Shown here in pieces: positions 18,981 through 64,000 of a stretch of 64,000 nucleotides of DNA (position 1 is the first letter of the stretch; every line of letters starts with the position of its first letter). The translations under genes were made by a program, and so were the position numbers. Source of the DNA: Yuukianura sp. NJ FZ-2021 (lineage: Eukaryota); assembly GCA_046563655.1 (NCBI GenBank), contig CM102286.1:14632001-14696000 (forward strand). The letters run 5' to 3'. The notes beneath the pieces are model-generated. The model was not told the DNA's origin and ran no database searches. It saw only the letters and a program-made list of their open reading frames with translations.

Positions 18981-19689
18981 TCCTTAGGATTCCCTTATTG
19001 GGGGATTTAGAGTGTGGTGGATCGAAGTCTGGTTGGAATTGGGGGAAAGTGGAGTGATTTTGAGAAGAAGCGGAGAGTGTCAGTTGCAGTTGACAGATCC
19101 ACCCTCCACTCGGAGTCTGTTTCACATCGACCCACTTCAGACTCAACGCAAGGTCAAAGGTCAACATTAAACACAACTTTATGAAATACTTCAACATCAT
19201 CAATTACAAATGTCACACACAGCCACTGCATCCCAATGGCACAAACAGCCACTGCATCACAATGTCATCCAAGTCAAGAAAAAAAGAAAACGACTCCCTC
19301 TGACATCAATCAAATCGTCATCTTCATTCCACTCGAAAAACAACAAAACTTTTATAGAAAAAGTGAAAAAACTACAAAAAGTTTTCTAGAAACTGTATAT
19401 AACGTGAAAAGCAAGTTTGAAGAAAAGTTTGAACGGCGAGGAACTTTGAAAAAGCTTGAAGTTGAATTACAGGAGAAATTTTTTTCAAAGTTGGGGCAAT
19501 TTGAGTTTTGCAAAAGTTTCTCATAATTTTGTGGTTTGTGTGTGACAGAGTTCTTTGAATTTTGAAAAGCGAAGCCGTGTTTCCTTTGCTGTCTTTTTCA
19601 ATTCAGTTTTGACAGGAGAAAAGTCTGTAATTGGAATTAATGGACATTTGCCATTCTGCAGGTTCAGAAGAGGCAGCGTCAGTACTTGT

Positions 19690-32000: not shown

Positions 32001-35000
32001 GAAGAAATTGGTGGTTGGAGGTTCAAATTGAACAAAAAAGAGATCTGCGGAGGGTCAGAAGCCCATTAAGCGAAATTGGTCTTAAACGCAGATCCATTAG
32101 AAGCAATTGACTCGGAATCTCAGGGGAGAACATCGCATGTTGTGGCGGGAATTCAAAAACACAACTCAGGTACAAAGTCAAGTGAAACACAGGTCAACGC
32201 GTGTCATTTGGCCACTTCCCGGGATTTGACTCACAAAAATCGGATTTGTGGTTTTCACTCGTGCATTTTGCATTTGGAAATTGTTGGCAGATGGAGAAAT
32301 CCAATTTGAATTTCCCCCTCCGAAAACATTTTGAAATGGACAGTTGTTTTTTCATTTCCCAGGAGAGCAGAGGTCATCAGACGAACATTTTTAATTCCCG
32401 TTCATTGGACAGGAAACAGAGTTTTGGTTGTAATCTTTTTGGATTGTGCGAGTGACAGGTCACGTGACAGTGCGAGTCGCCTCTACGCGGGCGACTTGTC
32501 ACTTCCACACACGTCGCTCTCAGTCTTTTGAATTTCAAAAAAGCGGGAGACGGAAGGGTGCCAGAATCGGATTTCGGTTTTTGTGGAATGGTCCAATCGA
32601 TCCGAATTTCTTTTGTTTTGAACAACCGCAGCAGAAAACAAAAGACGAGATCCGATTGGTCGGTTTTTGTTTCCGGGCGATTGATCGACAGACACTGAAG
32701 GGAGTATTTGAAATTGAAGTTTCCCGGGAAAGAATAAAAGCAACCAAGCGAACTCAGCTGAAAATCGAAATTCAAACTCTTGCAGATTTTCTAAAAAGTT
32801 CTTTTTTTTTTGTTTCAGGAAGCAAGCGTGGATCTCGTTCTGGCGGTTTTGACGTTCAGCAGACAAATCACTCGCGACATTCCTGGGTTCCCTCCTCTCC
32901 GTTTCCATACAGTAAGTCTAATGGCCACTCTCGTCTTTTGCCTTTTGAATTTGGCAAAAATCCAAAAGAAAAAAATCTCAAACCGCCCCTTGCCGGGGAA
33001 TTTGAAATTCCCTCGACTGCCAAACTCTGCTAAAAGCACAAAACAGCTTCTGCAGCTCCGGAATTCGGAAAAAGCCAAGATTAGCTCCTGGAAGTTTGTC
33101 GTTTTTCAGAGGATCAAAAGCACTCGAGTCTCTTAACGGCCAAAAAAATTCAAAAATTCCCGCGTGCACGAGACAGAAAAGTTTCCAGGATTTATGAAAG
33201 TCCACTTGATCCCAGACACACAAAAATCTTTTATGGGCGGAGATTCGGGGGGAAAAGTTTCAAAAACTTTTCACTTTTTTCCTTTTCTTCTATTTTTTTT
33301 TTATCTTGAAATCATTTTATTTTTGGAACAAATGTTTTCGAAATTTGAACAAAGTGGGATTAGTTCTTTTGTCTTTTTCTCAGAATCTTCTTTTTTATTT
33401 CCCTCAAAATGTTTTTTTAATGGACTTGTTAATGGCGGTTTTTTTGTGCTTGGGAGTGGAAACGACTTTCCGTGAATCTCGTTATTCCGCCCCAACGAAT
33501 TTCAAAAAGAAAAAACTCCCGCCTCCACCTAACGACACTTTGATTGTTTGGACGCAAGTCTTAAAATTTTGACTTGATTTTTGCCGTTTTGCTGTGGTTT
33601 TTGACTAATCTTTTGCCGTTGTTTGCTCTTATGGGTCCAGGTGATGCGAGCAATGCAAGCATAGGAAGCGGAGATGGGACGGGCGACGACGACGAAGATT
33701 CCAACGGCAAGAAAAACCAAAAGAAACGCGGAATCTTCCCGAAAGTGGCCACGAACATCCTGAGGGCGTGGCTATTCCAGCATCTCACGGTAAGTACTGC
33801 TCCAGCACATTTCAGTACTGGCAGTATTTCGAACATAAGCACATTTCAGTACTGGCAGTATTTTGAACAGTGTTTCGGAAGTAGTTTTTGTTTCCGGTCG
33901 AGTCGATTTGACTCAAGTTGAAGTTTGCCACAAAAGTTCGGATGGTTCCGAGCCATTAGTGGGAAAGTGGCTGCTGAGTCAGAATTGAGTCCAGAATGCC
34001 CGGATTCGGTTGAATGACTGGACGGAGATAAAACATTTCACTCTCAAAGATAAGCACAAAATACCCGCATTCCGTTTTTATGCTTTCAAATCTCCCGAAT
34101 TTATTTTTGACAAAGTCAAATACAAATTGAACTCAAAAGCTCAAGCCACATAAGCAACTGATTTTTGATTTCCGTTGCTAAATATACTTTTGAAAAAAAA
34201 ATCATTTGACGATTAACTTTTTCATGAAAATTTGAACTCCGTTTTTCGATTTCGAATGAACAAATTACTAGAACGGAGGAATTTGGAAACTGAGCGTTAA
34301 AATAATTTTGCTTTTTAAAATAAAGTTACAACTTTTTCATTTGACTTTTTGCGTTTTCATGAAAATTGTGTTTAGAGTGAAAGTCGTTTTTCGTCGTTTG
34401 AGACTTCCGAGTCATTTCTCGTCATGTGAAACCAAGTGAGGAAATGAAACAGGAAATGAAGAACATTTGCCCAGTGGAACATTTCTCCATTTCCCCCAAA
34501 AGTCAAATGCACTTGCACAGACGCAGCAAACAGAAATTTAGTCTCACTTGGAAGCAAAGTTGAAACGATTAACAGAAAAGCAGAAATTAATTTAAACTGA
34601 ACTTTGTGTTTGGCCCCCTGCAGAGTTCAGTTTCAAAAGTAGAGATTTGCATGGAAATGCGTTGTGCGCATCCCTCCTGCGCAGAGTCGTCGTTTGGTTG
34701 ATCTCGTCCTCCAGACGCACATTTGAGTGCAAGTCAACCAATTTCCAGAAGATCCAACGACGTCGTTTGCGTCTCCCTCCGCCATCAATCGTCGTAATGA
34801 ACTTCGGGGGACTCCTACAGAAGTCCAATTTCAATTTCCACAAAAGTCACTTTTGAATTTTACATGAAAGTTCCCGCTCTTTTGACTATGCATGAGACAC
34901 ACTTGACATTTGACATGGAACCAACTGAGACACGGCAACTTTTGACATTTTTCGAAATTTCGAAAAGAAAATGTCCAGAGTTGACACTTTTTCTGGAAAT

Positions 35001-38000
35001 TGAGAGAGTGAGTGATGCGTCCATTTGACTTTCTCCATTTCACGATGTAATTAATCCACAGTTCGAAAGAGAGAAAGTCGGAAAAGCACTCGACAAAAAA
35101 AGTGGAAGGAGACGCCATTAATCCTCGGAATTGGCGACAGCCCATTCCAACACAAAAAAACATTCTGCAGAAGCAACGAAAAACTCCACACAAAACTTCT
35201 TAGAAAACGACACTCAGGGGAAGAGACACGAAAATTAACAGGCAAAAAATTGTCTCTAAAATTACCCGCGAAAATCACAACCCACAAAACATTTTCTAAA
35301 CACAAGCAAACTATTTTTAGAAAAAGAAACTGAAAGTCACGTGTTAAAAAGCAGACTTTTATGAAGTTTCACTTTTTATGATTTGCGGTTGTCGTGATTT
35401 GAAATGGACCATCCAACAGACACTCCCAGCATTTCAGTGCCACTAAAAGACACTTTCCTCGTCATTTCTTTTTTTACGACGGAAACACAAAAGAGGAATT
35501 CCGGAAGGAAGAAACTTCCATCCTGAAATTGGCAATAACAAAAGTGAATTGTGGCAATTTCTGCCACTGCGCAAAGTTAAGAGTGGCTTCGGATCATGTC
35601 GGTTGAAAGTCAGCTCGATTTGTACTTTGGACATCGCGTGCCGAAGTGCCACGCCTTCTGTGTCGTCCTTGTTAGCACAAACTCCCTACTTAACGACCTG
35701 TCATCAGAACTACAATTTGCTCAAATCAAAAGTCGCTCTCCGCCCACACACGCAGCGAACGGCGACTGGCGACGACGTCGCCTCAAGGTTGGAAAATCAC
35801 ATAAAATAATTTCTGCTTTTGTTTGAATTTGCAGCATCCGTATCCATCAGAGGATCAAAAGAAACAACTCGCCCAAGACACGGGACTCACCATTCTGCAA
35901 GTCAACAACTGGTGAGTAATTTCAAAATTTCAAAATTCCCGCCCTTTTCCTTTGAATTTCGAAACTAAGCTTACGATCGTAAGAGGGAGAGATTAAGTCA
36001 AAAGAAACGACGCACAGGGGACTCATTTTCCCCTGAAATTACCGAGGATTGAGCCATTAGGAACTTTCACTTTTAATTGGACTGACCAACACAATTCAAA
36101 CTTTCCCTCCAGAAGTTAGTTGGATGGTCACATGATTTAGTGGGGAGGGGAGCAATGAGGAGATTAGAAAGTGTTTCAGTCTCTTTTGAGAAGACGCTGA
36201 TTGATCGCTGCTCCAGGAAACGCTCAGATCCACCCCAAAATGAGTGCGCAGAGAGAAGATTTTGCGGCTGAAGGGCGGATTCCTCCGAGGAATCTGAAAG
36301 ATGCGCCCCAATTTAAAAAACAGAAGCCACACACGTCGCTTTTTTAATTTTAACGAAGCGGAATTCAAACGAAACACACAAAGATCAGATGAAATCAGCG
36401 ATGAAATTCAATCCAACACAAAACACACACGGTGGCCTTCGTTAAAAATTCAAAAGAGCTTTTCATCCATCAACCCACGTGACACTTCTTGTCAATTAAT
36501 TTTTGATTTTAACATTTCAGCAGAAAGTTTGAATTCTTTGACCATTGGACAATCAAGCATGTTTGAACACAGAACGTGTCTCTTTTTGTATTCTAAAAAA
36601 GTAAAACAATTTTCAAACTTTAGGTTAACAAAAGAAAGTGAGTCATTGTATGCATAATTCAGAGAATCTGAAGCTCTTTTGTCATTTTGAAAAACACTTT
36701 CACCTTTCACTCGAATTTGGACGCACTTTGGATAATTCGACGAAAGTTTCTTCGTCTTTTGTTGAGCAGATCGATCGGAAGGAGGATTTTGATTAGGGAA
36801 ATTCAGCAGAAAGCATTCAGGCCATGTTCACAATAACAATGTTAACCTAATGTGTTTATCCATGTAATTTACACTACACAAACAACATACACTGTGCATT
36901 TCACATGTCGTAGCAAAAGATCCAAGTAAAGTGGAGGTCAAAGGTCACAGGAGAGACGCAATTAAGTTAATCGATTTCCATACTTTCAAATCTCCCGCTG
37001 AGAAGCAGACTCCACAAAACGCCGCCAAAGCAGAACATAAATTTGAAATTGCTAAACGCCCAGTTCATACCTTTAAAAAAATTCGTTTGTTTAGAAAATG
37101 TTTTGGTGAGAATGTTGATGAAGAAAGTCAATTAGATTTGAATCGATAAGGCACTTTGCCGCCATTTTGAAACTCACAACTCCCCTTCTCACTTGACAGG
37201 CTCATTTTTCAAAGGGCCCACAAAAAGGCTTCCCACTTCCATTAGCTCCGTAAAAAGAAGAAAAGTGTCTCACTTTCCCCCGGGGAAAGTCGGAGACAAT
37301 TCGGCGGGAAAATGGAAATTCAAATGAAGTCCACATGTGAAAGTCTCCCAGGAAATCAAAAGAATTAAACGCCTTGATTTACGACACAATCCCACTTTTC
37401 TTATCAACTCACGTCCAGCAGCCTTTCAAATTTTGAGCGGGAGGGTGTGAATTGAGTTTGAATTTTCATAAAGTCCCGCCGAATTGATGGGGGCAGCAGA
37501 TGACGCAAAGTGGGGAGAGCAAAGGTCATTCGCATCCCGCAGCAGCTTGGCTTAATGCTCACTTTCATCTAATTGGCCATCCGAATTCTGCCGCCACGCT
37601 CAAAGTGGACGTGCAACGGCTGGGAATTGGTCAATTCACACTTTTAACACTGACCAATCACAAATCAAAGAAAGTGAAAGCAAAGTTTGAAATTCCCACA
37701 CTTCTGCTTTGCATTTGGGTGGCATTGAGTCATTGTCGTTGACTTTTGCTCCCCTCCGCCCTGAAATGGAAAATACCCGGGTGATTATGGGAGATTGTGA
37801 TCCGATAGTGAAATTGGAGTTTCCCGCTTTCTCCTGAAACGAGGATGGTAATGGGCTGAAGACGCCGATTCAAATTTCCTGTTTACTTTCACTTCAAATT
37901 CTCCCGCTCAAACCATTCATCTCGCAAGGTATTGGCCATAAACACAATCCCACACGCGCCAAATTCACACTTTCCACATTCAAGTAATTCCGAAATGGAT

Positions 38001-39485
38001 CCATCCACAAATTGGATTCTGCCGCAACACGCAACTTTTTCTAGAAAATTACAAATTGAAATTTCCTGAGATGCCTCTGTGCATTTATGAGTTGAAGTTA
38101 ATTTATTTTCTTATCACTTTCAAACCTTCCGCCTAATTCCACAAACATTACAAAATCACACGTTCAAAAATTCTGGAAGCGACGATGCTTAAATTTTGAA
38201 TTTCATTTTTGAATTTCAGGTTCATAAATGCGAGGAGGCGAATAGTTCAGCCACTGATCGACCAGTCAAACAGAGCAGGAGGAGCCGGTAAAAAACCAAC
38301 ACAAACATTTTTGAATTTTGCCGCTTTTAGCTTCTGTTTGAATGAGAGTGTGATTGACATTGTGAAACAAAATCCCACCAACATTCGGTTCGTTAGAAAA
38401 GAAACGGAAGGAGCATCTGATACTTGTGATATCACTCGCTTTCTCCATTCAAGAAACAAGATACTTCTTCTGTGGTTTCCCGCCAGAGGGAGAAAGGCGG
38501 GAGTTTTAATTAGGACTCATTTGTCACTCTAATGGAAAAACCTCCGTGAATTCACTGGAATCACTTTCTCTTTTCCTAATTACAAACAAAGAGAAAGTCC
38601 CCGGAGAAGGAAAACAAGAATTGGATTTCAGAATTGGATTTTTGTGCTTCGGAATCCACCAATTACTTTCCCCCCTTCGATCCGAATTCGGATTGTTTTG
38701 AAAGAGTCCCTTCTGCTCTCTGGATTTTGTGGAATTGGTTCCAGCGGGAGAAACTGAAAAAGCGGGAGATTCAAAAGTTGGATGAAATTCGCATCTTATC
38801 GTCCTGCCCTCATCAATCACTTGGTTCCTGTCACTTTCAAAGGAGCTTTTCTGCGGTGGCTCAAAAACTCCCGCTCCACTGCTCTTCCATCCACTCTTTT
38901 CTCCCGGGAATTTCAAATGATCTTCGCACGAAGGAGGTTCCAGAGTGCTAATTGTCTCATTACCAACACTTCCACTCTCTCCTGGATTAAAATCAAATGA
39001 AAACTTTCCCCTGAAACTTCCATTTTCTAAAATTTTGAATTTCCCTCCATTTCCTAAAAGATTGAGAAATGTGTCCGGAGGGTGCCATGCATCTTCTCCC
39101 TCAACTTTCCAATCGGAAAATCCCTCCTTCTCGTCCATTCCACTGGACTTTTGGTTTGAATGGATTGTGGATTATGGATTGTGGAATGCTTGCAGTTGCT
39201 TCCCTGAGTCACGTNNNNNNNNNNNNNNNNNNNNNNNNNNNNNNNNNNNNNNNNNNNNNNNNNNNNNNNNNNNNNNNNNNNNNNNNNNNNNNNNNNNNNN
39301 NNNNNNNNNNNNNNGAGTCACGTGGTGTAATTTGTACAGTGTTTCCCCCCACGGTAGGTGGGGCGTACTCCCCAGAGGGGTCCATGGGGTACATGATGGA
39401 TGGGCAGCAAATGGTCCATAGGCCTGATGCAGCTTTCCATGGAGATGGCTACTACACTCCACAGTATTATCCACACCATCTCTAG
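20041..39485 (+). CDS. hth: Homothorax / Meis TALE homeodomain transcription factor, copy A (complete)
   Basis: Exons 20041-20055 (MSQPR), 22081-22289, 22364-22505, 25306-25356, 26203-26253, 26907-27083, 29643-29778, [32819-32911], 33641-33789, 35835-35911, 38220-38287 and 39340-39485. They encode the HM domain ([56 protein letters not shown]) and a TALE homeodomain ([29 protein letters not shown]...[15 protein letters not shown]). The protein ends [14 protein letters not shown]. Confidence 0.97.
23453..23557. promoter_or_regulatory. Candidate intronic enhancer: Exd/Pbx-Hox and Pbx-Meis site cluster
   Basis: TGATTTACGAC at 23453, AGATTTACGAC at 23477 and CTGTCAATCA (reverse complement TGATTGACAG) at 23548. 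Confidence 0.5.
25926..26084. promoter_or_regulatory. Second candidate intronic enhancer with the same motif pair
   Basis: TGATTTACGAC at 25926 and CTGTCAATCA at 26075. Confidence 0.45.
26528..26620. repeat. 31-bp tandem repeat, 3 copies (2 copies in the mirror arm, ~59065-59125)
   Basis: Unit AAATGTCGCCTACGACATCCACTTTCACACA. Confidence 0.85.
32819..32911 (+). CDS. hth: Putative frame-preserving 93-nt cassette exon of hth (mirror copy at 52754-52846, minus strand)
   Basis: Poly-pyrimidine TTTCAG acceptor and GTAAGT donor, phase 1-1, no stop codon ([31 protein letters not shown]). Lies between the HM domain and the homeodomain. Confidence 0.6.
33805..33870. repeat. Tandem repeat of about 33 bp just after an hth splice donor, 2 copies (3 copies in the mirror arm, ~51762-51861)
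   Basis: Unit AGCACATTTCAGTACTGGCAGTATTTCGAACATA. Confidence 0.8.
39215..39314. other. Assembly gap of 100 N (placeholder)
   Basis: Both flanks carry GAGTCACGT, and the paralogous site near 46550-46572 is contiguous. The true gap is therefore probably zero or a small overlap. Confidence 0.95.
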
Positions 39486-39709
39486 CACAGAGGTCACTCC
39501 AGCTCAACTCCAATCCATGAAACAATCTGAACAACAAGCCAAAGGTAATGCTGAACAAAAACTATCTGAACTTTATTTTTCAAGAAAGTTAATTTTTTGA
39601 ATTATTTTCCAACAGGGTCAAGGCTGTTCAACTTCAATCTAATCATCTCATTTGTGCCAGTGAAAGTAGGGGTGAGGCTAATCAGCTGAATAGCGGATTA
39701 CTCCGCTTT

Positions 39710-40689
39710 TTATTGCTCAGCCTGCATACTTTCTTCTCCAGAAATTCGTGACCTTGGTGCAGTTGGAATATTAGTACTGAGGCGGCAATTTTGGAAATGC
39801 CAATGTAGATAGCATGATCTTAAGTTAAGCCTAGAATCATCACATAAGTAATTAATGCGTTCATAATTCGAGTCTTCAGAATAACAATTTCGTAATAAAC
39901 TCAAATCGCAACTGATTTTAAATATTTTTTATTTGACCTTTGACCTTACACCAGCGATGGATCTGGAAATCTGTCGAAACAAGTTGGCGCCAAAATGAAC
40001 GATTTGATAATATCTGGAGAAAGTCCTGTTCGGTGTGGAATGTTATCAAAAACGGCACCCACTATTCCTCGGATATTCGGAGCTTCTAGACAGTACTCCA
40101 GTCCATTGTAGTAAGTCTTCGTGAAAAGGCGAACAGCTGATTGGGTCCCCGTGAGGACCAATGAGGTGACGTTTCCGTCGAATTCAGCGACATGTCGAAA
40201 ATATGGTCCATTCGGCTCTCCTAAAAACTCGTCTTGCTCGTAAAATGTCACCGACGGCTGGAAAATGTCTGACAAATTGCCATGGCCACGCGCAGACGCA
40301 ATTCCGCCTGGAAAAGATGCACAACGGACGTGGTCGTATGGACTGTAGCCTTTGAAACTTCCACTAAATTTCTTCTCAGAGTAAAACGTCCACCTTAAAT
40401 TACGACAAAACTAAAAAATTTGCCAATTTCCAAAATTCAAAAATTAGCGTTTTCAAAAAATTGCAAAATTTTCAAATTTAGCTTACACTCCCGTTGCACA
40501 TTCTGCAAACGGAACAAAAGTGTTGACCTCTGACACGGAGGTGCCACTGGACAAATAAAGCGGACTTTCGTCAAACAAATTTGCTTCTTGAGAATTGAAC
40601 AAATACACGCGTGCTCTTCTGCCTAGAGATCCACACTGCACTGAAATCACAATCACAAAGGAATACAAACCAACGTACAATGGGTTCAT
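39710..40689 (-). CDS. Secreted beta/gamma-crystallin (Greek-key)-like protein
   Basis: Exons 40689-40487 and 40393-39950, plus a possible third exon 39911-39710 (otherwise the stop is at 39946). A signal peptide is followed by repeated motifs CATGVWTFYSEKKFSG, SVTFYEQDEFLG and SLVLTG...VRLFTKTYYNGLEYCL. Confidence 0.7.
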
Positions 40690-43600
40690 AGTAACTTTGT
40701 TTTTCTGAAAAATGTCAAATTTTGAACTTTTTTGAAAAACTTTTTGGAAAAGTACTTTTTCGATTGTAGTTTAGGAAAGTGAGACGTTGGTCCGAGTGAT
40801 AATGTCCCCTGAGGAGCCGTGTGTCACAGACTGAACATGATCTGTGTGCCTAACAGCAGCTTTTGGCTTTATCTTCTATTTGTTCAAATGGTGTTCCTAA
40901 GCTTCCACACCAAAAATCCTTTTGTTTGAACAGGACTTTTCAAAAAAAAGATTTTCAAAAAAGAGGGAAGAAACAGAAAAAGCACAAAAACTACCCTAGG
41001 TTCTCAAATATTTACAATCCTACAAACGGGGTAACAAACAGGGTTAAGGTCAAGCTTTTCAAAAGTGAGTTTCTATTACCCAATAGGCTAAATTCAAAAT
41101 TTCAAAACAAAAATAAAGAAGAAATTTTCATTTTTGGTTTTTCGAAACTGTGTTTTCATTTTCAGGAATCCATTAGGTGTGAAGAAGAAAACTTTCGAAA
41201 AAATAAATTAGAAAAAAACTAATTTTCTCTCTCCAAATTACTTTTTTCATGTGGCGCCTATCTCAGAACTTTATTTTCCGAAATGTACAGCATGATCCTA
41301 CTTTTCCTTTTCTCCGAAAACCAAAAACTTTTAGTTTTTCAAAAGTTGTTTAGTTGTGCAACCCTGAGTCTGACACGCTGATAAATCGGTTTTGATGGTT
41401 CATACGATCTTATTAAAGTTCCCCTAACCTTTCCCCGCCCCCGCTACCCTCCCCGCCCACCCTAACTTAGGGTCCTGAATAATGGAACACAGCATTCCCC
41501 AACCAGAACTACGGCGGGCCAGCACTACTTCCAATTTATTCAATTACTCTTTTCTGTTCGACGTGTCTAACGTCACACGAGAGACTCGTCATATCCACCA
41601 GATCCAGTTCCAGGGCTATCCTGAGTCCATTATGTTCTACTTAATTCATGAGAGCCATGTTCAAACATGTTCAAACAGTAATTCAAGGCACACACACCCC
41701 CGTCTCAAGGGCCCTTCACACATATTTAGACTCCTGCACCACCCTTCAAACATCTTTAGACTCCTGCACCCCCATTCAACATTTTTGTCTTTTCTAAAAA
41801 GTAGCAACTAAAAAGTAAAATTCTAACCACGTTTTTCCCCCCACACTTTTCGCTTTCTTTTCTAATCAACCGAAAAAAGTCAACAAAATTAAAGTTCAAT
41901 TTACTTTCTCCCAAGTTGTTTTTTTCCGAATGGGCAAACAAAGGAGCCTCTTGTTTACTGTTCTGTCACTCACGGGGGGAATAGAGTGAAAGTAAAGTTG
42001 TAATTAGGCTAAAAACATAACATTAGGCTAAAACCTAACGTTAGGCTACACCTTAACCTAACAACCTAACTTTGTGCTGGAAACCTAACGTATTCTTTGT
42101 TCTGGGAAGATAAGCGAATTAGACTTTTCGGAGCTGACAAAGGAGAAAGCGTAATGGGGAGTGATGGTGAAAGTGGAGATTGGTTTTGTGTTGTTGTTGG
42201 GAGATCATTCCCATAACTCCTCATAAATAAGTTCACTTGACAGGTCATTCTGCTGGAGTTACTGGAGGATGCTGGATGCTGGATGCTGGGCAAGTATCCT
42301 CTGTCTGCAGCTGCTTTCAGTCCCAACGGCCTCACCGAACCGAAACACCTCTGGAAAGTGGAAGTGTGAGAAAGCGTAAGAGCCTCAAGTGTGAAATCTT
42401 TGGTGTTAGGAGCTTTGTTTCTCCAGCACTTTCCTACTACTCTCCAGGGACTGCTGGAAAACTGCTGGAGTCTCCAGGAAAGAGGATTTCATGGTGGGAA
42501 AATTCAAAGACTTCTCATAACTTCCCATTTCATGCCAAAAACGCCGTCTTCACTATCACAATCAACCATCTTGAAACTCCCACTTTCTTCATCCCATGGC
42601 TCTCCACTTCGAAATTTCAGTTTTCAAAAAAAGAAAAAAAAGTTTCAAAAAAAAATTCAGAAAAAAATTTTTCGGGAAGCTACAGAATCCAAGCAGGACA
42701 CATCTGCCCTTGTCACATTTTTTTAAAAACTTCTTTTTTTTATAAAAAGTTCCGGTTTTCAATTTTTACTCAATGGAAAATTTCTTCTTTTTTTCTTTAC
42801 ATTTCTGTGTGTTTTCCGTTTAGTTGAGTCGTTCCGGTATAAAATACATGAAGTAGAAAATTTTATGTCGTCACATTTTCTTTGAAACTTTCGCTTAAGT
42901 TGATCCTGTTTATGCAAAAACTGGTGACAAAGAGACGAGGTCTCGAACCCAGAACCCCTCTTTTCCTTCCCTGCGCCTTATCCATTCCCCTGCTCCATCA
43001 TCATTTCAAATGAAGCATCTGAAATGCACTGGGGCAGAATTTCATTGGTCCTAAAGAGACACACACAGTGTCATTGTAATGGACCAACTTTTACACTAGT
43101 CTTGACACCCTTCCAGCACATTGGACTCTCGTTGTCATGACAATGTCTTCCAGAAGCAGCTTAACGCCCAAATAGCCCACTATCTTCCCATTGACTCCGT
43201 CTATTGTCCCATTTCTACCAAAAGAGTAGTAAATGGAACCATAATTTTATGCTAAACAATTTCGGCTTTCTTTTTCAAAAGATTCGGACTCGTCCATTAG
43301 ACTCCGAATGAGTGGACGGAATCTTTTGTTGCTTGAGCTTCATTGTTGTTCGGAAGGAAGTGGATTGGATGCGGTTCTGACAAGACGTCAAGAATTTTTT
43401 CCAAACTTTTTTTTTTGAAAATTTCTTTTGTGCATAAAGTACTTTTGTAACAAAAGGTGCTTTGGTGTACTTAATTCTGACAAAAGGAACAGGAAGATGT
43501 TCGGAATAAAAGTTTCGTGTTGATGGAATTGTGAACTGACTATCATTAGAGTCAATCACTACTTGTACAAATCCTATTTTAAGTTGAAGAGTGACTATTC

Positions 43601-46396
43601 CCCTGACTCTGCCTAAACTTCTGAAATGAATCTTTTCTGACTTGTCTGAGGAAGCGTCAGACGCTGCATGAGCATCAAGAGTTGCTGACTCGGCAGAAAT
43701 TGAATCTTTCAAATTCGAACCGCAGCCACCACGCCCCTTTCTTCTCCCGTTTCATCAACTAAGTCTAATGATGTGCTTACTTTCATAAAGTGAAGGTTCC
43801 AACTCACTCTATTGTTCACATAATAACATATTTTATGTTATATTATATGCATTTTTTATAATATATTTTTATACCAACTCATTTCTTGGTGTACAAATCT
43901 AAGAGTTGGTCGTTTTGTTTGAATTTAACAGCAGAGCGTGGATTTTTATCATCCCGATTTTTTTGCGGCGCGGACTTTGGGATTGTATAGCGTTGATTTT
44001 TTGAAACACAAAACTTACTGGGAAATACCAGTTTTTGGGGGGTATTGGAACCATTTTTCAAAAAATTTCAGAAAAAAATGCTGTTTTTTTTCGTTTTTTT
44101 TTTTGAAAACAGAAAGTAATAGGAAATGTACAGTGTGATTTTCCATGTCACTGTTCAATCCTTGAAGAGGCTTCATTTCATTTACTTTTTTTGACAGAAC
44201 ATGACACCTCACAAAATGAACTCTATCCGGCACAGAGGAGGGAGTTTTTGAAAAGCTTTTCATTTTTTGAAATTTCCCGCTTCGAGTACAATGGGGATGA
44301 TGACTTGGCCACTCGGGAACACCAACCCTTTACACTGTAATAAGTATTGTCCAATGAGCACATGCCATCCTCACATGAACAACGTCACACTAACAACCGT
44401 TCACTTTTTTACTTTAGAAACTGGTGGCTGAAATGTCTGACAAGTCAGAGGAAAAGTCACGCTTTGGGAAATTCAAACATTCCTTTTGTAAACGGTTTCC
44501 ATGTTGAGCTGCTGACATGAGCTTGATTGAAAAGGAAGTTTAGGCATGACGACAGTTCGGTGACATGTTCCCACATGCGCATCAGACATGCAGACATGTT
44601 GGACAGTGCACGATTTGCACGAACAATCAAACACAACTGCTACTGCCGGAAGTAACCATTTTCTACTGGGCTTAATAACACACCAATTTACTAAAAAAAA
44701 GAATTTCAAAATTTCCTTTTCCCAAAAAAAAAAGAGTTAACAATGGAAACAGAATTTTGATTTTATTATCGCTATTTTGGCCTGGCTGGCTGAAACGTTT
44801 TAGCCGGCAGAAACCTTTTTTTCCCACCGGTAATTACGGAAATTACCATGCTAATCACAAACCTGAAAATTTCAACAGAGCTCATAAAATTTTAACATTT
44901 CACAAGAAAACTTTCTCCAACTTTCTCTTTTACCTTAAAAAGCTTCCGGAGGATCGATATCCGACTACTCCGAGTTTTAGTCGGTTCCTTCCGCCGTTGA
45001 GTGAGCCTCAGGTGCACTTTGCCTAATTGAAATTGTATTTGAATGTGGTTTTGCCTTCGTAAAAAGACGATGAAGCAGAAGGGGTCCCTCTGCCCCTCTT
45101 CTAAGGGCTTGTCCTGGGGGGCCTTCATTAGAAGGTGTTTCTGGCCCCATTTCGGAGACCATTAGACGGAGAGTAAATGGGTCTGCAGGGACTCATTTCA
45201 GAGGGGAAGCCAAGGGTATTAGCCCCCTCCACCCCCTAATCCCCTTTCAAATTATTCTCCAGACCCCCCCCCCTTCTCCAGAGAGGGGGGGGGGTTAGAG
45301 AGAGACTCCTCATCATTCCCGTTTACTTCCATCCCATTTCCTCTGGCTTCAAATCCCTTTCTCCCGCTTTCTCTTTCCCGCTCGACGTGGAGCGAAGCTC
45401 CTTTCCAGCCAAGCGAAAAGACTTTAGTGAAAGTGGCAGTTAGCATTTAGCCTCCCTCCACTCCCTCATCCTCCGAAAGCGGATTACTCTCCCTCCTTTT
45501 TTTAAAAGAGACAAACAACCAAACAAATACAAGTCCACTTTCTCTTTTCTTACTTCAACAAACATTTATTTTTGTACGGTAGACATGCTAAGGAAGCGTT
45601 AGGTTACACTTAACGTTAGTTTTTAAATCAAACGCTTTTTAATTTTTAACTTATTTAAGTTAGTTTTAGCCTAAATCATGAGCCTTGCAACGGAACATTG
45701 CATTTGGGGGAAATTAGTCTTGAGAGCATCCAGATCCTTGAACCGGAAGATGTTTCTGCGGAAGGGGGGGGGGGGTTAGCATGACGAAAGGATTGGGTTT
45801 CCATGGGGGGGGGGGGGTTCTGGGTTGTCATGTCATCTTGTGCTGGTTCCCCACTTGAAGAAAGTTGCCGCCAAAATACAATTTCCGTTATTACCCTGTC
45901 ACGGCTAGAAATTGCTTTTTCGGGAATTACATTTCTGGTCTTCCGCTTCACTGGCGTTCCGCTTGGTTCGACTTTAAAAGGATCCGGTGGATATCCGGAT
46001 GCTGGACATTTTGTGGAAGAGATGAGGATTTGAGGATGATTGACTGTTAGTATTTGACTCAAGTGTAGATGATCATGATTGCAAAGGATACGAATTTCAA
46101 TGGCTCCACCTTCACTCAGCCCCACCAATAATCACATCAGAGCTTTACGACTTTAACTCTGAAAAAAGAGCAGAATTAGACACAAAGACACTCGAGTTCC
46201 ACCCATTGTGACCCTAACATGCAATTTGAGTTGCCCACAATTCCCACGCGGCGGCCATTAGAGGCCCCTCGAGGGTGGGCCCTCACCCGCCCCCTTCTGA
46301 ATTACTTCAAACACGAAACTATGTAATTTGTAACTCACCTGGATTGAGTCAGGGCTGGATTGAACTGGAGTCACCCCCGGTTCACACCCGCCCCCT

Positions 46397-49300
46397 TCAG
46401 AGGTGAGGGTAGTACTGCGGCGGGTAATGGTAGCCATCTCCATGGAAAGCTGCATCAGGCCTATGGACCATTTGCTGCCCATCCATCATGTACCCCATGG
46501 ACCCCTCTGGGGAGTACGCCCCACCTACCGTGGGGGGAAACACTGTACAAATTACACCACGTGACTCAGGGAAGCAACTGCAAGCATTCCACAATCCATA
46601 ATCCACAATCCATTCAACCCAAAAGTCCAGTGGAATGGACGAGAAGGAGGGATTTTCCGATTGGAAAGTTGAGGGAGAAGATGCATGGCACCCTCCGGAC
46701 ACATTTCTCAATCTTTTAGGAAATGGACGGAAATTCAAAATTTTAGAAAATGGAAGTTCCAGAAGAGAGTTTTCATTTGATTTTAATCCAGGAGAGAGTG
46801 GAAGTGTTGGTAATGAGACAATTAGCACTCTGGAACCTCCTTCGTGCGAAGATCATTTGAAATTCCCGGGAGAAAAGAGTGGATGGAAGAGCAGTGGAGC
46901 GGGAGTTTTTGAGCCACCGCAGAAAAGCTCCTTTGAAAGTGACAGGAACCAAGTGATTGATGAGGGCAGGACGATAAGATGCGAATTTCATCCAACTTTT
47001 GAATCTCCCGCTTTTTCAGTTTCTCCCGCTGGAACCAATTCCACAAAATCCAGAGAGCAGAAGGGACTCTTTCAAAACAATCCGAATTCGGATCGAAGGG
47101 GGGAAAGTAATTGGTGGATTCCGAAGCAGAAAAATCCAATTCTGAAATCCAATTCTTGTTTTCCTTCTCCGGGGACTTTCTCTTTGTTTGTAATTAGGAA
47201 AAGAGAAAGTGATTCAGTGAATTCACGGAGGTTTTTCCATTAGAGTGACAAATGAGTCCTAATTAAAACTCCCGCCTTTCTCCCTCTGGCGGGAAACCAC
47301 AGAAGAAGTATCTTGTTTCTTGAATGGAGAAAGCGAGTGATATCACAAGTATCAGATGCTCCTTCCGTTTCTTTTCTAACGAACCGAATTTGGGTGGGAT
47401 TTTGTTTCACAATGTCAATCACACTCTCATTCAAACAGAAGCTAAAAAGCGGCAAAATTCAAAAATGTTTGTGTTGTTTTTTTACCGGCTCCTCCTGCTC
47501 TGTTTGACTGGTCGATCAGTGGCTGAACTATTCGCCTCCTCGCATTTATGAACCTGAAATTCAAAAATCAAAATTTAAGCATCGTCGCTTCCAGAATTTT
47601 TGAACGTGGGATTTTGTAATGTTTGTGGAATTAGGCGGAAGGTTTGAAAGTGATAAGAAAATAAATTAACTTCAACTCATAAATGCACAGAAGCATCTCA
47701 GGAAATTTCAATTTGTAATTTTCGGAAAAAGTTGCGTGTTGTGGCAGAATCCAATTTGTGGATGGATCCATTTCGGAATTACTTGAATGTGGAAAGTGTG
47801 AATTTGGCGCGTGTGGGATTGTGTTTATGGCCAATACCTTGCGAGATGAATGGTTTGAGCGGGAGAATTTGAAGTGAAAGTAAACAGGAAATTTGAATCG
47901 GCGTCTTCAGCCCATTACCATCCTCGTTTCAGGAGAAAGCGGGAAACTCCAATTTCACTATCGGATCACAATCTCCCATAATCACCCGGGTATTTTCCAT
48001 TTCAGGGCGGAGGGGAGCAAAAGTCAACGACAATGACTCAATGCCACCCAAATGCAAAGCAGAAGTGTGGGAATTTCAAACTTTGCTTTCACTTTCTTTG
48101 ATTTGTGATTGGTCAGTGTTAAAAGTGTGAATTGACCAATTCCCAGCCGTTGCACGTCCAGTTTGAGCGTGGCGGCAGAATTCGGATGGCCAATTAGATG
48201 AAAGTGAGCATTAAGCCAAGCTGCTGCGGGATGCGAATGACCTTTGCTCTCCCCACTTTGCGTCATCTGCTGCCCCCATCAATTCGGCGGGACTTTATGA
48301 AAATTCAAACTCAATTCACACCCTCCCGCTCGAAATTTGAAAAGCTGCTGGACGTGAGTTGATAAGAAAAGTGCGAGTGTGTCGTAAATCAAGGCGTTTA
48401 ATTCTTTTGATTTCCTGGGAGACTTTCACATGTGGACTTCATTTGAATTTCCATTTTCCCGCCGAATTGTCTCCGACTTTCCCCGGGGGAAAGTGAGACA
48501 CGTTTCTTCTTCTTTTACGGAGCTAATGGAAGTGGGAAGCCTTTTTGTGGGCCCTTTGAAAAATGAGCCTGTCAAGTGAGAAGGGGAGTTTGGAGTTTCA
48601 AAATGGCGGCAAAGTGCCTTATCGATTCAAATCTAATTGACTTTCTTCATCAACATTCTCACCAAAACATTTTCTAAACAAACGAATTTTTTAAAGGTAT
48701 GAACTGGGCGTTTAGCAATTTCAAATTTATGTTTTCCTTTGGCGGCATTTTGTGGAGTCTGCTTCTCAGCGGGAGATTTAAAAGTATGGAAATCGATTAA
48801 CTTAATTGCGTCTCTCCTGTGACCTTTGACCTCCACTTTACTTGGATCTTTTGCTACGACATGTGAAATGCACAGTGTATGTTGTTTGTGTAGTGTGAAT
48901 TACATGGATAAACACATTAGGTTAACATTGTTAGGGTGAACATGGCCTGAATGCTTTCTGCTGAATTTCCCTAATCAAAATCCTCCTTCCGATCGATCTG
49001 CTCAACAAAAGACGAAGAAACTTTCGTCGAATTATCCAAAGTGCGTCCAAATTCGAGTGAAAGGTGAAAGTGTTTTTGAAAATGACAAAAGAGCTTCAGA
49101 TTCTCTGAATTATGCATACAATGACTCACTTTCTTTTGTTAACGTTTGTTTGAAAATTGTTTCACTTTTTTAGAATTGAAAAGTTCTGTGTTCAAACGTG
49201 TTTGAATGTCCAACGGTCAAAGAATTCAAACTTTTTGTTGAAATTTGGAAATCAAAAATTAATTGACAAGAACTGTCACGTGGGTTGATGGATGAAAAGC

Positions 49301-52300
49301 TCTTTTGAATTTTTAACGAAGGCCACCGTGTGTGTTTTGTGTTGGATTGAATTTCATCGCTGATTTCATCTGATCTTTGTGTGTTTCGTTTGAATTCCGC
49401 TTCGTTAAAATTAAAAAAGCGACGTGTGTGGCTTCTGTTTTTTAAATTGGGGCGCATCTTTCAGATTCCTCGGAGGAATCCGCCCTTCAGCCGCAAAATC
49501 TTCTCTCTGCGCACTCATTTTGGGGTGGATCTGTGCGTTTTGCTGCAGCGATCAATCAGCGTCTTCTCAAAAGAGACTGAAATGCACTTTCTAATCTCTT
49601 CACTGCTCCCCTCCCCACTAAATCATGTGACCATCCAACTAACTTCTGGAGGGAAAGTTTGAATTGTGTTGGTCAGTCCAATTAAAAGTGAAAGTTCCTA
49701 ATGGCTCAATCCTCGGTAATTTCAGGGGAAAATGAGTCCCCTGTGCGTCGTTTCTTTTGACTTAATCTCTCCCTCTTACGATAAGTGTAATTTCGGAATT
49801 TTGAAAGGAAAAAGGCGGGAAATTTGAAATTTTGAAATTACTCACCAGTTGTTGACTTGCAGAATGGTGAGTCCCGTGTCTTGGGCGAGTTGTTTCTTTT
49901 GATCCTCGGATGGATACGGATGCTGCAAATTCAAACAAAAGCAGAAATTATTTTATGTGATTTTCCAACCTTGAGGCGACGTCGTCGCCAGTCGCCGTTC
50001 GCTGCGTGTGTGGGCGGGAAGCGACTTTTGATTTGAGCAAATTGTAGTTCTGATGACAGGTCGTTAAGTAGGGAGTTTGTGCTAACAAGGACGACACAGA
50101 AGGCGTGGCACTTCGGCACGCGATGTCCAAAGTACAAATCGAGCTGACTTTCAACCGACATGATCCGAAGCCACTCTTAACTTTGCGCAGTGGCAGAAAT
50201 TGCCACAATTCACTTTTGTTATTGCCAATTTCAGGATGGAAGTTTCTTCCTTCCGGAATTCCTCTTTTGTGTTTCCGTCGTAAAAAAAGAAATGACGAGG
50301 AAAGTGTCTTTTAGTGGCACTGAAATGCTGGGAGTGTCTGTTGGATGGTCCATTTCAAATCACGACAACCGCAAATCATAAAAAGTGAAACTTCATAAAA
50401 GTCTGCTTTTAGCGTCACGTGACTTTCAATTTCTTTTTCTAAAAATAGTTTGCTTGTGTCTAAAAATGTTTTGTGGGTTGTGATTTTCGCGGGTAATTTT
50501 AGAGACAATTTTTTGCCTGTTAATTTTCGTGTCTCTTCCCCTGAGTGTCGTTTTCTAAGAAGTTTTGTGTGGAGTTTTTCGTTGCTTCTGCAGAATGTTT
50601 TTTTTTGTGTTGGAATGGGCTGTCGCCAATTCCGAGGATTAATGGCGTCTCCTTCCACTTTTTTTGTCGAGTGCTTTTCCGACTTTCTCTCTTTCGAACT
50701 GTGGATTAATTACATCGTGAAATGGAGAAAGTCAAATGGACGCATCACTCACTCTCTCAATTTCCAGAAAAAGTGTCAACTCTGGACATTTTCTTTTCGA
50801 AATTTCGAAAAATGTCAAAAGTTGGCGTGTCCCAGTTGGTTCCATGTCAAATGTCAAGAGTGTCTCATGCATAGTCAAAAGAGCGGGAACTTTCATGTAA
50901 AATTCAAAAGTGACTTTTGTGGAAATTGAAATTGGACTTCTGTAGGAGTCCCCCGAAGTTCATTACGACGATTGATGGCGGAGGGAGACGCAAACGACGT
51001 CGTTGGATCTTCTGGAAATTGGTTGACTTGCACTCAAATGTGCGTCTGGAGGACGAGATCAACCAAACGACGACTCTGCGCAGGAGGGATGCGCACAACG
51101 CATTTCCATGCAAATCTCTACTTTTGAAACTGAACTCTGCAGGGGGCCAAACACAAAGTTCAGTTTAAATTAATTTCTGTTTTTCTGTTAATCGTTTCAA
51201 CTTTGCTTCCAAGTGAGACTAAATTTCTGTTTTCTGCGTCTGTGCAATGCATTTGACTTTTGGGGGAAATGGAGAAATGTTCCACTGGGCAAATGTTCTT
51301 CATTTCCTCTTTCATTTCCTCACTTGGTTTCACATGACGTGAAATGACTCGGAAGTTGCAAACGACGAAAAACGACTTTCATTTGAAACACGAAATTCGA
51401 ATTTTCATGAAGAAGTTAATCGTCAAATGATTTTTATTTCAAAAGTATATTTAGCAACAGAAATCAAAATCAGTTGCTTATGTGGCATGAGCTTTTGAGT
51501 TCAATTTGTGTTTGGTTTTGTCCAAATAAATTCGGGGAGATTTGAAAGCATAAAAACCGAATGCGGGTATTTTGTGCTTATCTTTGAGAGTGAAATGTTT
51601 TATCTCCGTCCAGTCATTCAACCGAATCCGGGCATTCTGGACTCAATTCTGACTCAGCAGCCACTTTCCCACTAATGGCTCGGAACCATCCGAACTTTTG
51701 TGGCAAACTTCAACTTGAGTCAAATGGACTCGACCGGAAACAAAAACTACTTCCGAAACACTGTTCAAAATACTGCCAGTACTGAAATGTGCTTATGTTC
51801 AAAATACTGCCAGTGGTGAAATGTGCTTATGTTGGAAATACTGCCAATACTCAAATGTGCTGGAGCAGTACTTACCGTGAGATGCTGGAATAGCCACGCC
51901 CTCAGGATGTTCGTGGCCACTTTCGGGAAGATTCCGCGTTTCTTTTGGTTTTTCTTGCCGTTGGAATCTTCGTCGTCGTCGCCCGTCCCATCTCCACTGC
52001 CTATGCTTGCATTGCTCGCATCACCTGGACCCATAAGAGCAAACAAGGCAAAAGATTAGTCAAAATCACGTCAAAACGGCAAAAATCAAGTCAAAATTTT
52101 AAAAGACTTGCGTCAAAACAATCAAAGTGTCGTTAGCTGGAGGCGGGAGTTTTTTCTTTTTGAAATTCGTTGGGGCGGAATAACGAGATTCACGGAAAGT
52201 CGTTTCCACTCCCAAGCACAAAAAAACCGCCATTAACAAGTCCATTAAAAAAACATTTTGAGGGAAATAAAAAAGAAGATTCTGAGAAAAAGACAAAAGA

Positions 52301-55300
52301 ACTAATCCCACTTTGTTCAAATTTCGAAAACATTTGTTCCAAAAATAAAATGATTTCAAGATAAAAAAAAAGTAGAAGAAAAGAAAAAAAAAGTGAAAAC
52401 TTTTTGAAACTTTCCCTCCCGAATCTCCGCCCATAAAAGATTTTTGTGTGTCTGGGATCAAGTGGACTTTCATAAATCCTGGAAACTTTCTGTCTCGTGC
52501 ACGCGGGAATTTTTGAATTTTTTTGGCCGTTAAGAGACTCGAGTGCTTTTGATCCTCTGAAAAAAGACGAACTTCCAGAAGCTAATCTTGGCTTTTTCGA
52601 ATTCCGGAGCTGCAGAAGCTGTTTTGTGCTTTTAGCAGAGTTTGGCAGTCGAGGGAATTTCAAATTCCCCGGGAAGGGGCGGTTTGAGATTTTTTTCTTT
52701 TGGATTTTTGCCAAATTCAAAAGGCAAAAGTAGAAAGTGGCCATTAGACTTACTGTATGGAAACGGAGAGGAGGGAACCCAGGAATGTCGCGAGTGATTT
52801 GTCTGCTGAACGTCAAAACCGCCAGAACGAGATCCACGCTTGCTTCCTGAAACGAAAAAAAAGAAGAAAAAAAAAGATTTTTAGAAAATCTGCAAGAGTT
52901 TGAATTTCGATTTTCGGCTGAGTTCGCTTGGTTGCTTTTATTCTTTCCCGGGAAACTTCAATTTCAAACTCTCCCTTCAGTGTCTGTCGATCAATCGCCC
53001 GGAAACAAAAACCGACCAATCGGATCTCGTCTTTTGTTTTCTGCTGCGGTTGTTCAAAACAAAAGAAATTCGGATCGATTGGACCATTCCACAAAAACCG
53101 AAATCCGATTCTGGCACCCTTCCGTCTCCCGCTTTTTTGAAATTCAAAAGACTGAGAGCGACGTGTGTGGAAGTGACAAGTCGCCCGCGTAGAGGCGACT
53201 CGCACTGTCACGTGACCTGTCACTCGCACAATCCAAAAAGATTACAACCAAAACTCTGTTTCCTGTCCAATGAACGGGAATTAAAAATGTTCGTCTGATG
53301 ACCTCTGCTCTCCTGGGAAATGAAAAAACAACTGTCCATTTGAGAATCTTTTCAGAGGGGGAAATTCAAATTGGATTTCTCCATCTGCCAACAATTTCCA
53401 AATGCAAAATGCACAAGTCAAAACCACAAATCCGATTTTTGTGAGTCAAATCCCGGGAAGTGGCCAAATGACACGCGTTGACCTGTGTTTCACTTGACTT
53501 TGTACCTGCGTTGTGTTTTGAAATTCCCGCCACAACATGCGATGTTCTCCCCTGAGATTCCGAGTCAATTGCTTCTAATGGATCTGCGTTTAAGACCAAT
53601 TTCGCTTAATGGGCTTCTGACCCTCCGCAGATCTCTTTTTTGTTCAATTTGAACCTCCAACCACCAATTTCTTCACTTTCAAAAGCCCGGGAGCTTTGAA
53701 CGCTGTGAGCAGAATGCAAATGCGCAGAAGTGGAGCAGAGTGTGGTCGGTTTGGACAGAAACAGAGAGACAAATGGTCCCAATCCACTCGACCGAATTTT
53801 GATGGTCACTTTTCCCCTCTTTTCTTTTTTGAAGTTTCCTCTCTGGGGAAAATGCTGTCTATTTTCTGAAATTCAATTGCGGAAGAAGCACTTTTTCAAA
53901 ATTACGATCATCGATTTCTTTCGGGGCGAGTTGAGAAAAAGGGCGGAAGTGTTTAAAAGGTGCTTGTGACTAAATGAGTGTTTTCGGGTGTGGGAACTCC
54001 TTTTGGTTTTCGATTCCTCTGATAACTCTGATGAGCATCTGACTTTTTCTTCTGAATCAGAGGATTAGACGTGACTAGCGTAAAGATGCTGTCTATTAAT
54101 AGGAATAGCGGATAATAGGATCCATATTTCTGTGCTTGTTTTGAATTGGGCGGGACAAAGGAATTTGAGAACAATCGCATGATGAAGTTCGTCTCTTGTT
54201 CATTATGCAGAAAAATGCTGCGTCTGAGCGTAAGGATCCAATCAGAGTTCTATTGTGTTCTTCTGCGCATGTGCCAAGCATCCAGTCAAGAAAAGCGTCG
54301 CCCCGGGAAACACAAATTCAAAGGAAGTTTTCCTCTTCTGTCCAATTAGACGCAAATCCAAGACACAAAAGACGAAGGAAATGGAGGTGCAGCAGCCATT
54401 GAATTTTGAATTGCGGGAGTTGGCGTGTGTTTGAATTTTTGAATTTTGAAATGGGCGGGAACTGTTGTTGACATGTCATGTGACTCTCATTGTCTTCTGC
54501 TTAAGATGTCATCAATCCCCCATTAGAGTGTCACTCACAAACGAGACGAAAACACGCAGATCAAGAGACACGCCTGGATTCAATTTGAAGTTTGGTTGAT
54601 TCTGCGCATGACCCACCGCACTGCGTCTGTTTCCAAGCGGATGTTCGTGAGTGGTTCAATTTGTGAGTTGAATCTGGTCTTTGTCTTTCGTTGTTTGAAT
54701 TTGTCGGGAGTGTCAAGGGCCCTCTTTGGCCAAGGGCCCTTCAAGTACTCGCATCCAACAAATAAGCTTGTGAGTTTCAAGTTGAAATTTCCCACTCTCC
54801 ACTTTTTGAAAGTATAAACAATGGTTTGAAATTTTGGAAATGTCAAAACAATCGTGTAAATCTCCGAACATGATTCAAAAATTCCTGGGGGAGTTTCTCC
54901 AGAAGTTCATAAAAGTCGAAAATGTTTTTTTGAAAACCAGTTTTTGAACTTTTCCTTTTGTGTTTAATTTTGTTTGTGTTGAAATGGATCTTGCATTGAG
55001 ATGGAAATTGTTGTATTTCCATAACGAGGTTTCACTCTTCGTCTCACTTCCATTAAAATCCATTAAGAAACTGATCAGAGTCTCAAAGAAGACAATGAAA
55101 TTTTTCCTTTTGTTTCCGAGGAGGGAGATTTTTCAAAAACTTTTTATCAAAAATGAAAAAGTTCAAAAATATCGCTGTAGTTTTGGGAGGGGCGGGAAGA
55201 TGTTTGACTTTTGAAGTATTTTGAACAGCGTCTTCCACCGGAAATGTTTTTTCATTTTGGAATTTGTGTTTCTGTGGAGGTGATTGACGTTGGCAGTTGA

Positions 55301-63553: not shown

Positions 63554-64000
63554 CTGAAAAGTTAAAAGTCGGAATTAGTTTTAATCCCTCCAAAATGGAT
63601 TTCAAAAGAGCGGGAATTTGAAAATGGGTGAATTTGAGCGTGTGGCTGGAGATTCCATTTTGTCTTTTTAAGCCACACGACTCTAATCCTGTCCCGAGTG
63701 ACAATTCAACTTAAGTGCCAACTTCCTAATTACGGAGGTTTAGTGTCATGGCGGGAATTTCCAAATTTGAAATGTTCATTTCAAATTACGCCACCATGTG
63801 TCAGAGGGGAGATTTTTTCAACATGAAAATTTTAGTTGGAAGAGCAGTTGGTTGATTTTTGGTGAAATTCGAAACCAACCCAAAATCCCACAAAATGCAG
63901 TTGGTTTCTTTCGTGGAAAAAGAGGAAACGCACACTTGAATTTCAACACTTGAAACTTTTTTTAAATTTTGAATTGAAACATTTTTCAAGTGTTTTTCAA
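46430..64000 (-). repeat. Right arm of the giant inverted repeat (runs off the window)
   Basis: Mirror of 21634-39452 with scattered substitutions and small indels. Confidence 0.97.

Follow-up and report, generated by a model that had tools for sequence, protein, structure and literature searches.

The 64,000-nucleotide stretch of DNA analyzed here, called the window below, comes from Yuukianura sp. NJ FZ-2021 (GenBank assembly GCA_046563655.1, contig CM102286.1, positions 14,632,001 to 14,696,000 of the forward strand). It carries two copies of the homothorax gene (hth, or Meis) in inverted orientation, and the subject of this report is the sharp boundary, located inside the last coding exon, at which the near identity of these two copies comes to an end. 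When the Hth proteins P0136, P0143 and P0123 were used as tblastn queries against the window, each arm of the inverted repeat returned the same ten coding exons. Their splice sites are intact, with AG at 10/10 acceptors and GT at 9/9 donors of exons e2-e11, and the 401-codon frames are open in both copies. The Pfam domain Meis_PKNOX_N (PF16493) is recognized at E=1.1e-21 on 22365-22505 (+) and in the same way on 63122-63262 (-), while Homeobox_KN (PF05920) matches a single exon, on 35835-35909, at E=5.5e-10. The homeodomain ends in WFINARRR, and its FINARRR part is encoded by the exons 38220-38287 and 47553-47486. Relatives of these proteins number 1,796 at E<=0.001; the named ones are homothorax or Meis proteins and the best named ones are insect homothorax proteins. 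The short first ATG exon of hth was absent from the search results. Upstream of 22081, a search for a start reading MAQ gave a single match, at 19236, which does not resemble the first exon of hth. On the other strand, the first exon of copy B falls beyond the window end (64000), as do the outer arm ends. Apart from the first short exon, the window contains two complete, convergent (tail-to-tail) homothorax/Meis genes, from an arthropod that is probably a hexapod; their coordinates are collected in Table 1.

The arms are separated by a unique spacer that includes both gene tails. Their length of 17.8 kb is a minimum, arm B being cut by the window end. When aligned with blastn, and with MAFFT against the reverse complement, they differ by 310 mismatches in 17,332 bases (1.79%), introns included, and by 76 gap events, 40 of which concern a single base. 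Over the 391 codons common to both copies, 8 differences were counted, all of them synonymous and in third position (binomial p=1.5e-4). The two encoded proteins are identical over the 401 codons except for their final 10 residues. Because 8/8 of the exon differences are synonymous, the substitutions between the arms are genuine. The divergence is distributed unevenly (dispersion 6.2, p=6e-14): the number of mismatches in a kilobase ranges between 2 and 44, and mismatch-free runs reach 587 nt for a mean mismatch spacing of 46 nt, a patchiness that fits many conversion tracts of different age. The highest values are found at 26609-27592 and 33569-34535 (44 and 33 mismatches per kb respectively), and these segments adjoin others that are nearly identical between the arms, such as 27592-28592 (2 per kb). 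Tandem repeats lie at 59058-59122 and 51762-51861.

The last coding exons of the two copies have the same length and the same reading frame, and their first differing base is 39453/46429, after 113 identical nt. Together with 25 nt of the upstream intron, this shared part makes up a perfect inverted repeat of 138 nt. Beyond it, the codon-aligned tails have 9 sense codons in common, which carry 6 substitutions (5 in third position and 1 in first position), and they are also separated by two one-codon indels and unlike stop codons. Their likeness is nevertheless above chance, as measured by global alignment scores against 300 shuffles (z = 4.5 over 33 nt, z = 7.4 over 120 nt). In most of the relatives' Hth C-termini (n=27) the sequence reads HYP[PA][QE]YYGHHL. 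Copy B is nearer to this consensus at HYPPQYY and copy A at HHL. The proline of YYPH, common to both tail types, occurs in 0/27 of the relatives' proteins and in 0/16 of the other loci described below (L002-L017). P0002, P0005 and P0022, which are long, repetitive and of low identity, were excluded from this survey beforehand. P0031, a cluster mate of P0004, proved to be an unrelated, bacterial-type protein and was set aside. An earlier interpretation of the window, the sequence-only reading, had described two 146-nt last exons identical up to 39452/46430; these coordinates and frames were reproduced, and the translations and stops that it gave for the tails (TAG for A, TGA for B) are as stated. 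Its claim that the tails have diverged more than the arms agrees with the figures given above, namely 6 substitutions in 9 codons plus 2 indels versus 1.79% of arm mismatches. It had also placed both tails to the right of the scaffold gap, which is the case, the sole run of N being 39215-39314.

Metagenome contigs were scanned with an alignment of Hth C-termini, and 17 loci were obtained (L001-L017). The first of these, L001, is an independent contig of 7,066 nt from another species, with about 78% exon nucleotide identity to the window. It displays the same inverted layout, with a B-type last exon at 505-651 (+) and an A-type last exon at 6959-6813 (-), and hth intron sequence precedes both exons. 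Ten blocks are collinear between L001 and the spacer of the window, including an open reading frame (ORF) at 39946-40410. From the intron to the boundary, the two copies of the window differ at 0/138 positions and the two copies of L001 at 4/144, versus 30-32/138 between species; in addition, a 6-nt indel upstream of the boundary is common to both L001 copies. By these counts, the sequence upstream of the boundary groups by species. Past the boundary, both one-codon indels of the tails and the Thr/Pro replacement follow the tail type across species. The 400 nt beyond the stop match strongly within a type (z=16.2 for A-A and 19.1 for B-B), versus a z of at most 2.9 across types. Judged from these characters, the tails and the downstream DNA group by type. 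The position of the boundary in the two species differs by a few bases. The changes in the tails between species amount to 7 synonymous and 0 non-synonymous for A, and to 6 and 0 for B (13/0 in total, p about 8e-10). Because 13/13 of these changes are synonymous, both tails have been coding throughout and have evolved under purifying selection. Both hth copies are presumed to be expressed. No second inverted last exon was found in L006 (10 kb downstream) or L015 (6.7 kb), the sole loci of L002-L017 with more than 6 kb downstream, and the duplication would therefore be specific to the clade that unites the species of the window and that of L001.

A grouping by species before the boundary and by type after it corresponds to the standard signature of concerted evolution. 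The locus is very probably an old inverted hth pair in which the gene bodies have been homogenized by arm-to-arm conversion while the tails and the 3' ends were kept apart. According to this scheme, the duplication would be older than the split from the L001 species, and since that split each lineage would, on its own and many times over, have overwritten one gene body, introns included, with the other. The process would be interlocus gene conversion between the arms, presumably by a recombinational mechanism. Copying would end sharply 33 nt before the stop codon; the final 10 codons, like the 3' untranslated sequence behind them, would escape it and persist as two orthologous types under purifying selection. 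Several factors, alone or in combination, may hold the boundary in place: the codon indels of the tails, one of which begins precisely at this point, the high density of mismatches that follows, and selection to keep both tails. The first of the two hypotheses put forward by the sequence-only reading (that the duplication is old, that selection acts on both ends and that the bodies are homogenized) is supported by the body grouping by species, the tails and flanks grouping by type and the 13/13 synonymous changes. The comparison of tail and gene body in related species, which it had suggested, was run on L001 and favors concerted evolution.

The same grouping could have been produced by a re-duplication that took place once per lineage. 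Beside a full hth gene there would have been an old copy of its own 3' end, or what was left of one, in inverted orientation, and fold-back or break-induced replication, primed in the last exon, would have rebuilt the second body without any repeated conversion. Under this scenario, too, the arms would group by species and the junction would fall within old homology, and a length of 17.8 kb, which is long for ordinary conversion tracts, counts in its favor. It requires, however, that two lineages underwent this event at almost identical positions. It also fits poorly with the 6 synonymous and 0 non-synonymous changes of tail B, which point to a tail that was coding throughout, and with the patchy divergence of the arms, which suits tracts of many ages. 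Re-duplication is consequently considered improbable, and gene conversion between the arms is retained as the explanation of their similarity.

The integrity of the assembly has to be weighed at this point, since a scaffold gap of 100 N lies in the last intron of copy A. The 9 bases before this gap recur after it, and arm B (46552-46590) reads through them once. The contig ends therefore overlap and the join is essentially gapless. Under an explanation by assembly artefact, the contig to the left of the gap would be the second haplotype of arm B, placed upside down beside a short inverted last exon. The proximity of the join, only 125 nt before exon A, speaks for such an error, and an arm divergence of 1.8% with 8/8 synonymous exon differences would suit alleles too. 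The 9-nt overlap of the gap flanks, however, agrees exactly with the sequence of arm B, and the L001 contig also carries hth intron before both exons. Purifying selection on tail A (7/0) furthermore requires upstream hth exons on its own strand.

For 39315-46600, five DNA runs and no RNA run were listed as containing the sequence; four of them are from sample S1, the remaining one (X4) being from another organism and another study. The junction with tail A is present in an S1 contig (X2 record 9, covering 39423-39819). At the junction with tail B, three S1 contigs (X1 record 4, X2 record 13, X3 record 17) stop between 46459 and 46463; they break 30 nt inside the shared exon, as expected of a k=31 graph at a repeat. 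In X4, a 1,051-nt contig (record 25) begins with 507 nt of intron and exon from the arm, passes into tail A and continues to 39960, spanning the place of the gap, which is difficult to reconcile with an artefact. The contig k-mer depth in X1 is 407-490 for the 4 listed arm records versus 180-235 for the 4 listed spacer records; this ratio of about 2:1 is a hint of the two arms per spacer expected of a true inverted pair, bearing in mind that such a depth is no copy number according to the caveat of the tool. The listed arm records of X4 (depth 4.8-6), at about 5x, are no deeper than its spacer records (5-7), as an artefact would have it. Cover of X4 is near nil at 45318-46429, on the tail-B side, and at 41316-42649, and is too shallow (about 5x) to be interpreted. 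The overlapping gap flanks, the bridging contig of X4, the L001 layout and the selection on tail A make the artefact very improbable, and the approximately doubled arm depth of X1 also speaks against it. X4 record 25 reaches a depth of 223, and in every run more than one contig maps to 46741; the depth of this record is probably inflated by an intron repeat.

The second hypothesis of the sequence-only reading was an invertible 3'-end switch, in which a single hth body would face a cassette of 7 kb with an inverted repeat of the last exon at either end, the two arms being haplotypes of opposite orientation. Flipping would also satisfy the selection observed on both tails, and inverted repeats of this length can recombine. 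The assembly, however, holds two full gene bodies, with the full hth exon set in each arm, and the arm to spacer depth of X1 is about 2:1 instead of the ratio of about 1:1 predicted by a switch. This hypothesis is contradicted by the two bodies, and the depth also hints against it. No outer repeat boundary or non-hth flank was met in the >=17.8 kb of the arms, and no contig links an outer end to a short repeat. A Pfam scan limited to the spacer gave 0/7 ORFs (>=115 aa) with a match at E<=0.01, and thus no recognizable recombinase among them; the only inverted self-similarity detected within the spacer consists of low-complexity matches. Bacterial shufflons and invertases combine one constant gene body with short repeats and a dedicated recombinase. 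The hth locus resembles them by its inverted repeats inside the coding region with alternative C-terminal segments between, and departs from them by its two bodies, its arms of at least 17.8 kb and its 0/7 spacer ORFs recognizable by Pfam as a recombinase. A switch of this kind is extremely unlikely. A different possibility, compatible with two bodies, is that crossing-over between the arms flips the spacer and swaps the modules formed by tail and 3' untranslated region (UTR) between the bodies and their upstream control regions; this is doubtful at present.

Several observations weigh against concerted evolution of the whole hth pair, or restrict its reach. Substitution distances in the tails (27-30 nt) do not group by type, with 4-7 differences for every pair, and the grouping by type thus rests on three characters and on the downstream DNA. 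A tree computed with IQ-TREE from the 126-column exon body and 8 outgroup loci has 0/8 inner branches well supported, and the grouping of the body relies on difference counts rather than on a tree. As L001 covers only 107 nt of intron on the A side and 504 nt on the B side, concerted evolution is directly visible only in the 138-251 nt of each arm that lie next to the boundary and is extrapolated beyond. The ratio of arm to spacer depth, estimated from few records, comes to about 1.5-2 for X2 and to about 4 for X3. Of the 12 listed indel places, 10 have reads in the arm-A state or close to it, and the arm-B state is missing from run X1 at 7/12 of these places, so that part of the 76 indel differences between the arms may be assembly errors.

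The same reads provide some additional observations on the assembled letters. At arm-B indels of the single-base or homopolymer type, for example those at 47214, 48511, 48686 and 57692, the run contigs show the arm-A state only, at double depth; these indels look like assembly errors or polymorphisms. At position 47700 of the window, whose arm-A partner lies near 38067, one letter is present in both assembled arms and another in all four runs at full depth, which implies that the S1 runs are not letter-for-letter the assembled sequence. Contigs break, join elsewhere or pile up at about 40745-41117, 43391-43431, 44084-44109, 46741 and 58770-58790, and these places are probably the ends of dispersed repeats.

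Table 1. Coordinates of the inverted hth pair, its last exons and its spacer in the window
Feature	Position	Strand	Remarks
hth/Meis copy A	22081..39485	+	10 coding exons, 401 codons + stop
Copy A, first five coding exons	22081-22289, 22364-22505, 25306-25356, 26203-26253, 26907-27083	+	
Copy A, last five coding exons	29643-29778, 33641-33789, 35835-35911, 38220-38287, 39340-39485	+	
hth/Meis copy B	46397..63553	-	10 coding exons, 401-codon frame
Copy B, first five coding exons	63553-63345, 63263-63122, 60340-60290, 59444-59394, 58766-58590	-	
Copy B, last five coding exons	56036-55901, 52024-51876, 49922-49846, 47553-47486, 46542-46397	-	
Arm A	21634..39452	+	e2 to 113 nt into last coding exon of copy A; 100-N gap inside
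Arm B	46430..64000	-	hth copy B; extends past window end
Unique spacer	39453..46429	.	6,977 nt, both tails included
Exon A, last coding exon of copy A	39340-39485	+	146 nt, AG before
Exon B, last coding exon of copy B	46542-46397	-	146 nt, AG before; same reading frame as exon A
Shared part of exon A	39340..39452	+	113 nt, identical to copy B
Shared part of exon B	46430..46542	-	113 nt, identical to copy A
Tail A	39453..39485	+	10 codons + TAG; same peptide type in L001
Tail B	46397..46429	-	10 codons + TGA; same peptide type in L001
3' untranslated continuation of exon A	39486..39546	+	to donor-like AAAG/GTAA, GT at 39545-39546
3' untranslated continuation of exon B	46337..46396	-	to donor-like CCAG/GTGAG, GT at 46338-46337
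Scaffold gap, last intron of copy A	39215..39314	.	100 N; flanks overlap by 9 nt
Conserved ORF, terminal coding exon	39946..40410	-	tail-to-tail with hth A; possibly beta/gamma-crystallin-like

Past the stop codons, a weak residual similarity between A and B extends over about 60 nt and fades at the donor-like sites listed in Table 1. Both sites have a counterpart in L001, where GCCAAAG/GTAA is present 44 nt past the stop in type A and AATCCAG/GTGAG is conserved in type B. In the part of Irimia et al. 2011 (PMC3140891) that bears on this region, the Meis/hth genes of Pancrustacea are described with a stop in an extension of exon 11, followed by an untranslated exon. Because of this pattern, the GT sites, 59 and 58 nt past the stops, are probably the donors of a 3'-UTR intron.

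Within the spacer, the ORF at 39946-40410 is 78.5% identical in amino acids to L001 5913-6359 (+) over 149 residues, with the stop in common. The sequence-only reading had referred to a crystallin gene beside tail A. The L001 match upholds the conserved ORF on which this was based, and the crystallin family itself is only weakly indicated: the features of the ESM Atlas reach 0.90 to crystallin clusters, which is a lead only, and the one Pfam hit at E<=10 is Inhibitor_I36, which is not significant (E=0.24). Non-coding blocks of the spacer are also kept in L001 in the same order, with 78-93% identity, at 45879-45934, 45297-45494, 45122-45198 and 44997-45052, and further ones at 44166-44218, 42169-42250 and 41624-41662. 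These short conserved blocks may be untranslated downstream exons of hth or regulatory elements.

Large palindromes of the primate Y and X chromosomes are known to be kept uniform by arm-to-arm gene conversion. The hth pair shares with them gene-bearing inverted arms on the scale of tens of kb, a unique spacer, a sharp boundary between arm and spacer and a layout common to different species, as well as arms that are closer within a species than between species. The hth arms differ, however, by 1.8%, compared with a few hundredths of a percent in primate palindromes; their boundary lies inside a coding exon and produces different C-termini and 3' UTRs, and what they carry is a TALE homeobox gene with a developmental role instead of a member of a testis family. 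Concerted evolution with a defined conversion boundary is also known from the human fetal globin pair and from the inverted Amy and Hsp70 pairs of Drosophila. There too, one part is homogenized and groups by species, and past a sharp boundary an older divergence persists, with a grouping by copy. Unlike these pairs, the converted part of the hth locus would cover at least 17.8 kb with all the introns, sparing only 33 coding nt and the 3' end, and the position of its boundary is the same within a few bases in two species.

As regards the family itself, the C-terminal region of Meis/hth is presented in the relevant part of PMC3140891 as the evolutionarily active part of the gene, alternative C-termini being generated by alternative splicing within one gene, and a single Meis/hth gene is reported there for most of the invertebrates studied. 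The window agrees with the genes treated in that part of the study by its variable C-terminus, and its stops with a downstream donor-like GT fit the Pancrustacea layout. Unlike the splicing variants described there, the two C-termini found here come from two gene copies. Retained duplicates with a diversified expression pattern are known from spiders, namely the hth-1 and hth-2 paralogs (PMC5513375, in part). These are likewise retained arthropod homothorax duplicates, and the corresponding part of that paper gives no sign of an inverted pair or of concerted evolution. A full-text literature search, judged from its search results alone, returned no description of an inverted or concerted hth pair. 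In another genome, the MEIS-domain exon occurs twice in tandem, with slight differences, in the predicted protein P0039 (142 aa), and this may represent a tandem exon duplication in the hth/Meis gene of another animal.

The maintenance of an inverted pair by conversion is a known process; what sets this locus apart is that its boundary falls in the final coding exon of a gene that regulates development and is kept between species. At a practical level, the 17.8-kb inverted repeat that lies beside a scaffold gap is not to be purged as a haplotype duplicate. The hth pair offers a compact and well-marked example for studying why a conversion boundary stays at a given position. Homothorax is a core cofactor of Hox proteins, and this lineage keeps, across two species, two copies of it whose proteins differ in their last ten residues and whose 3' ends are wholly different. 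If the spacer does flip by crossing-over, a recurrent natural exchange of 3' ends would take place, polymorphic in populations and not programmed, and each tail would be kept since it is needed in some context. The two copies constitute a natural experiment on the roles of the extreme C-terminus and of the 3' UTR of Hth.

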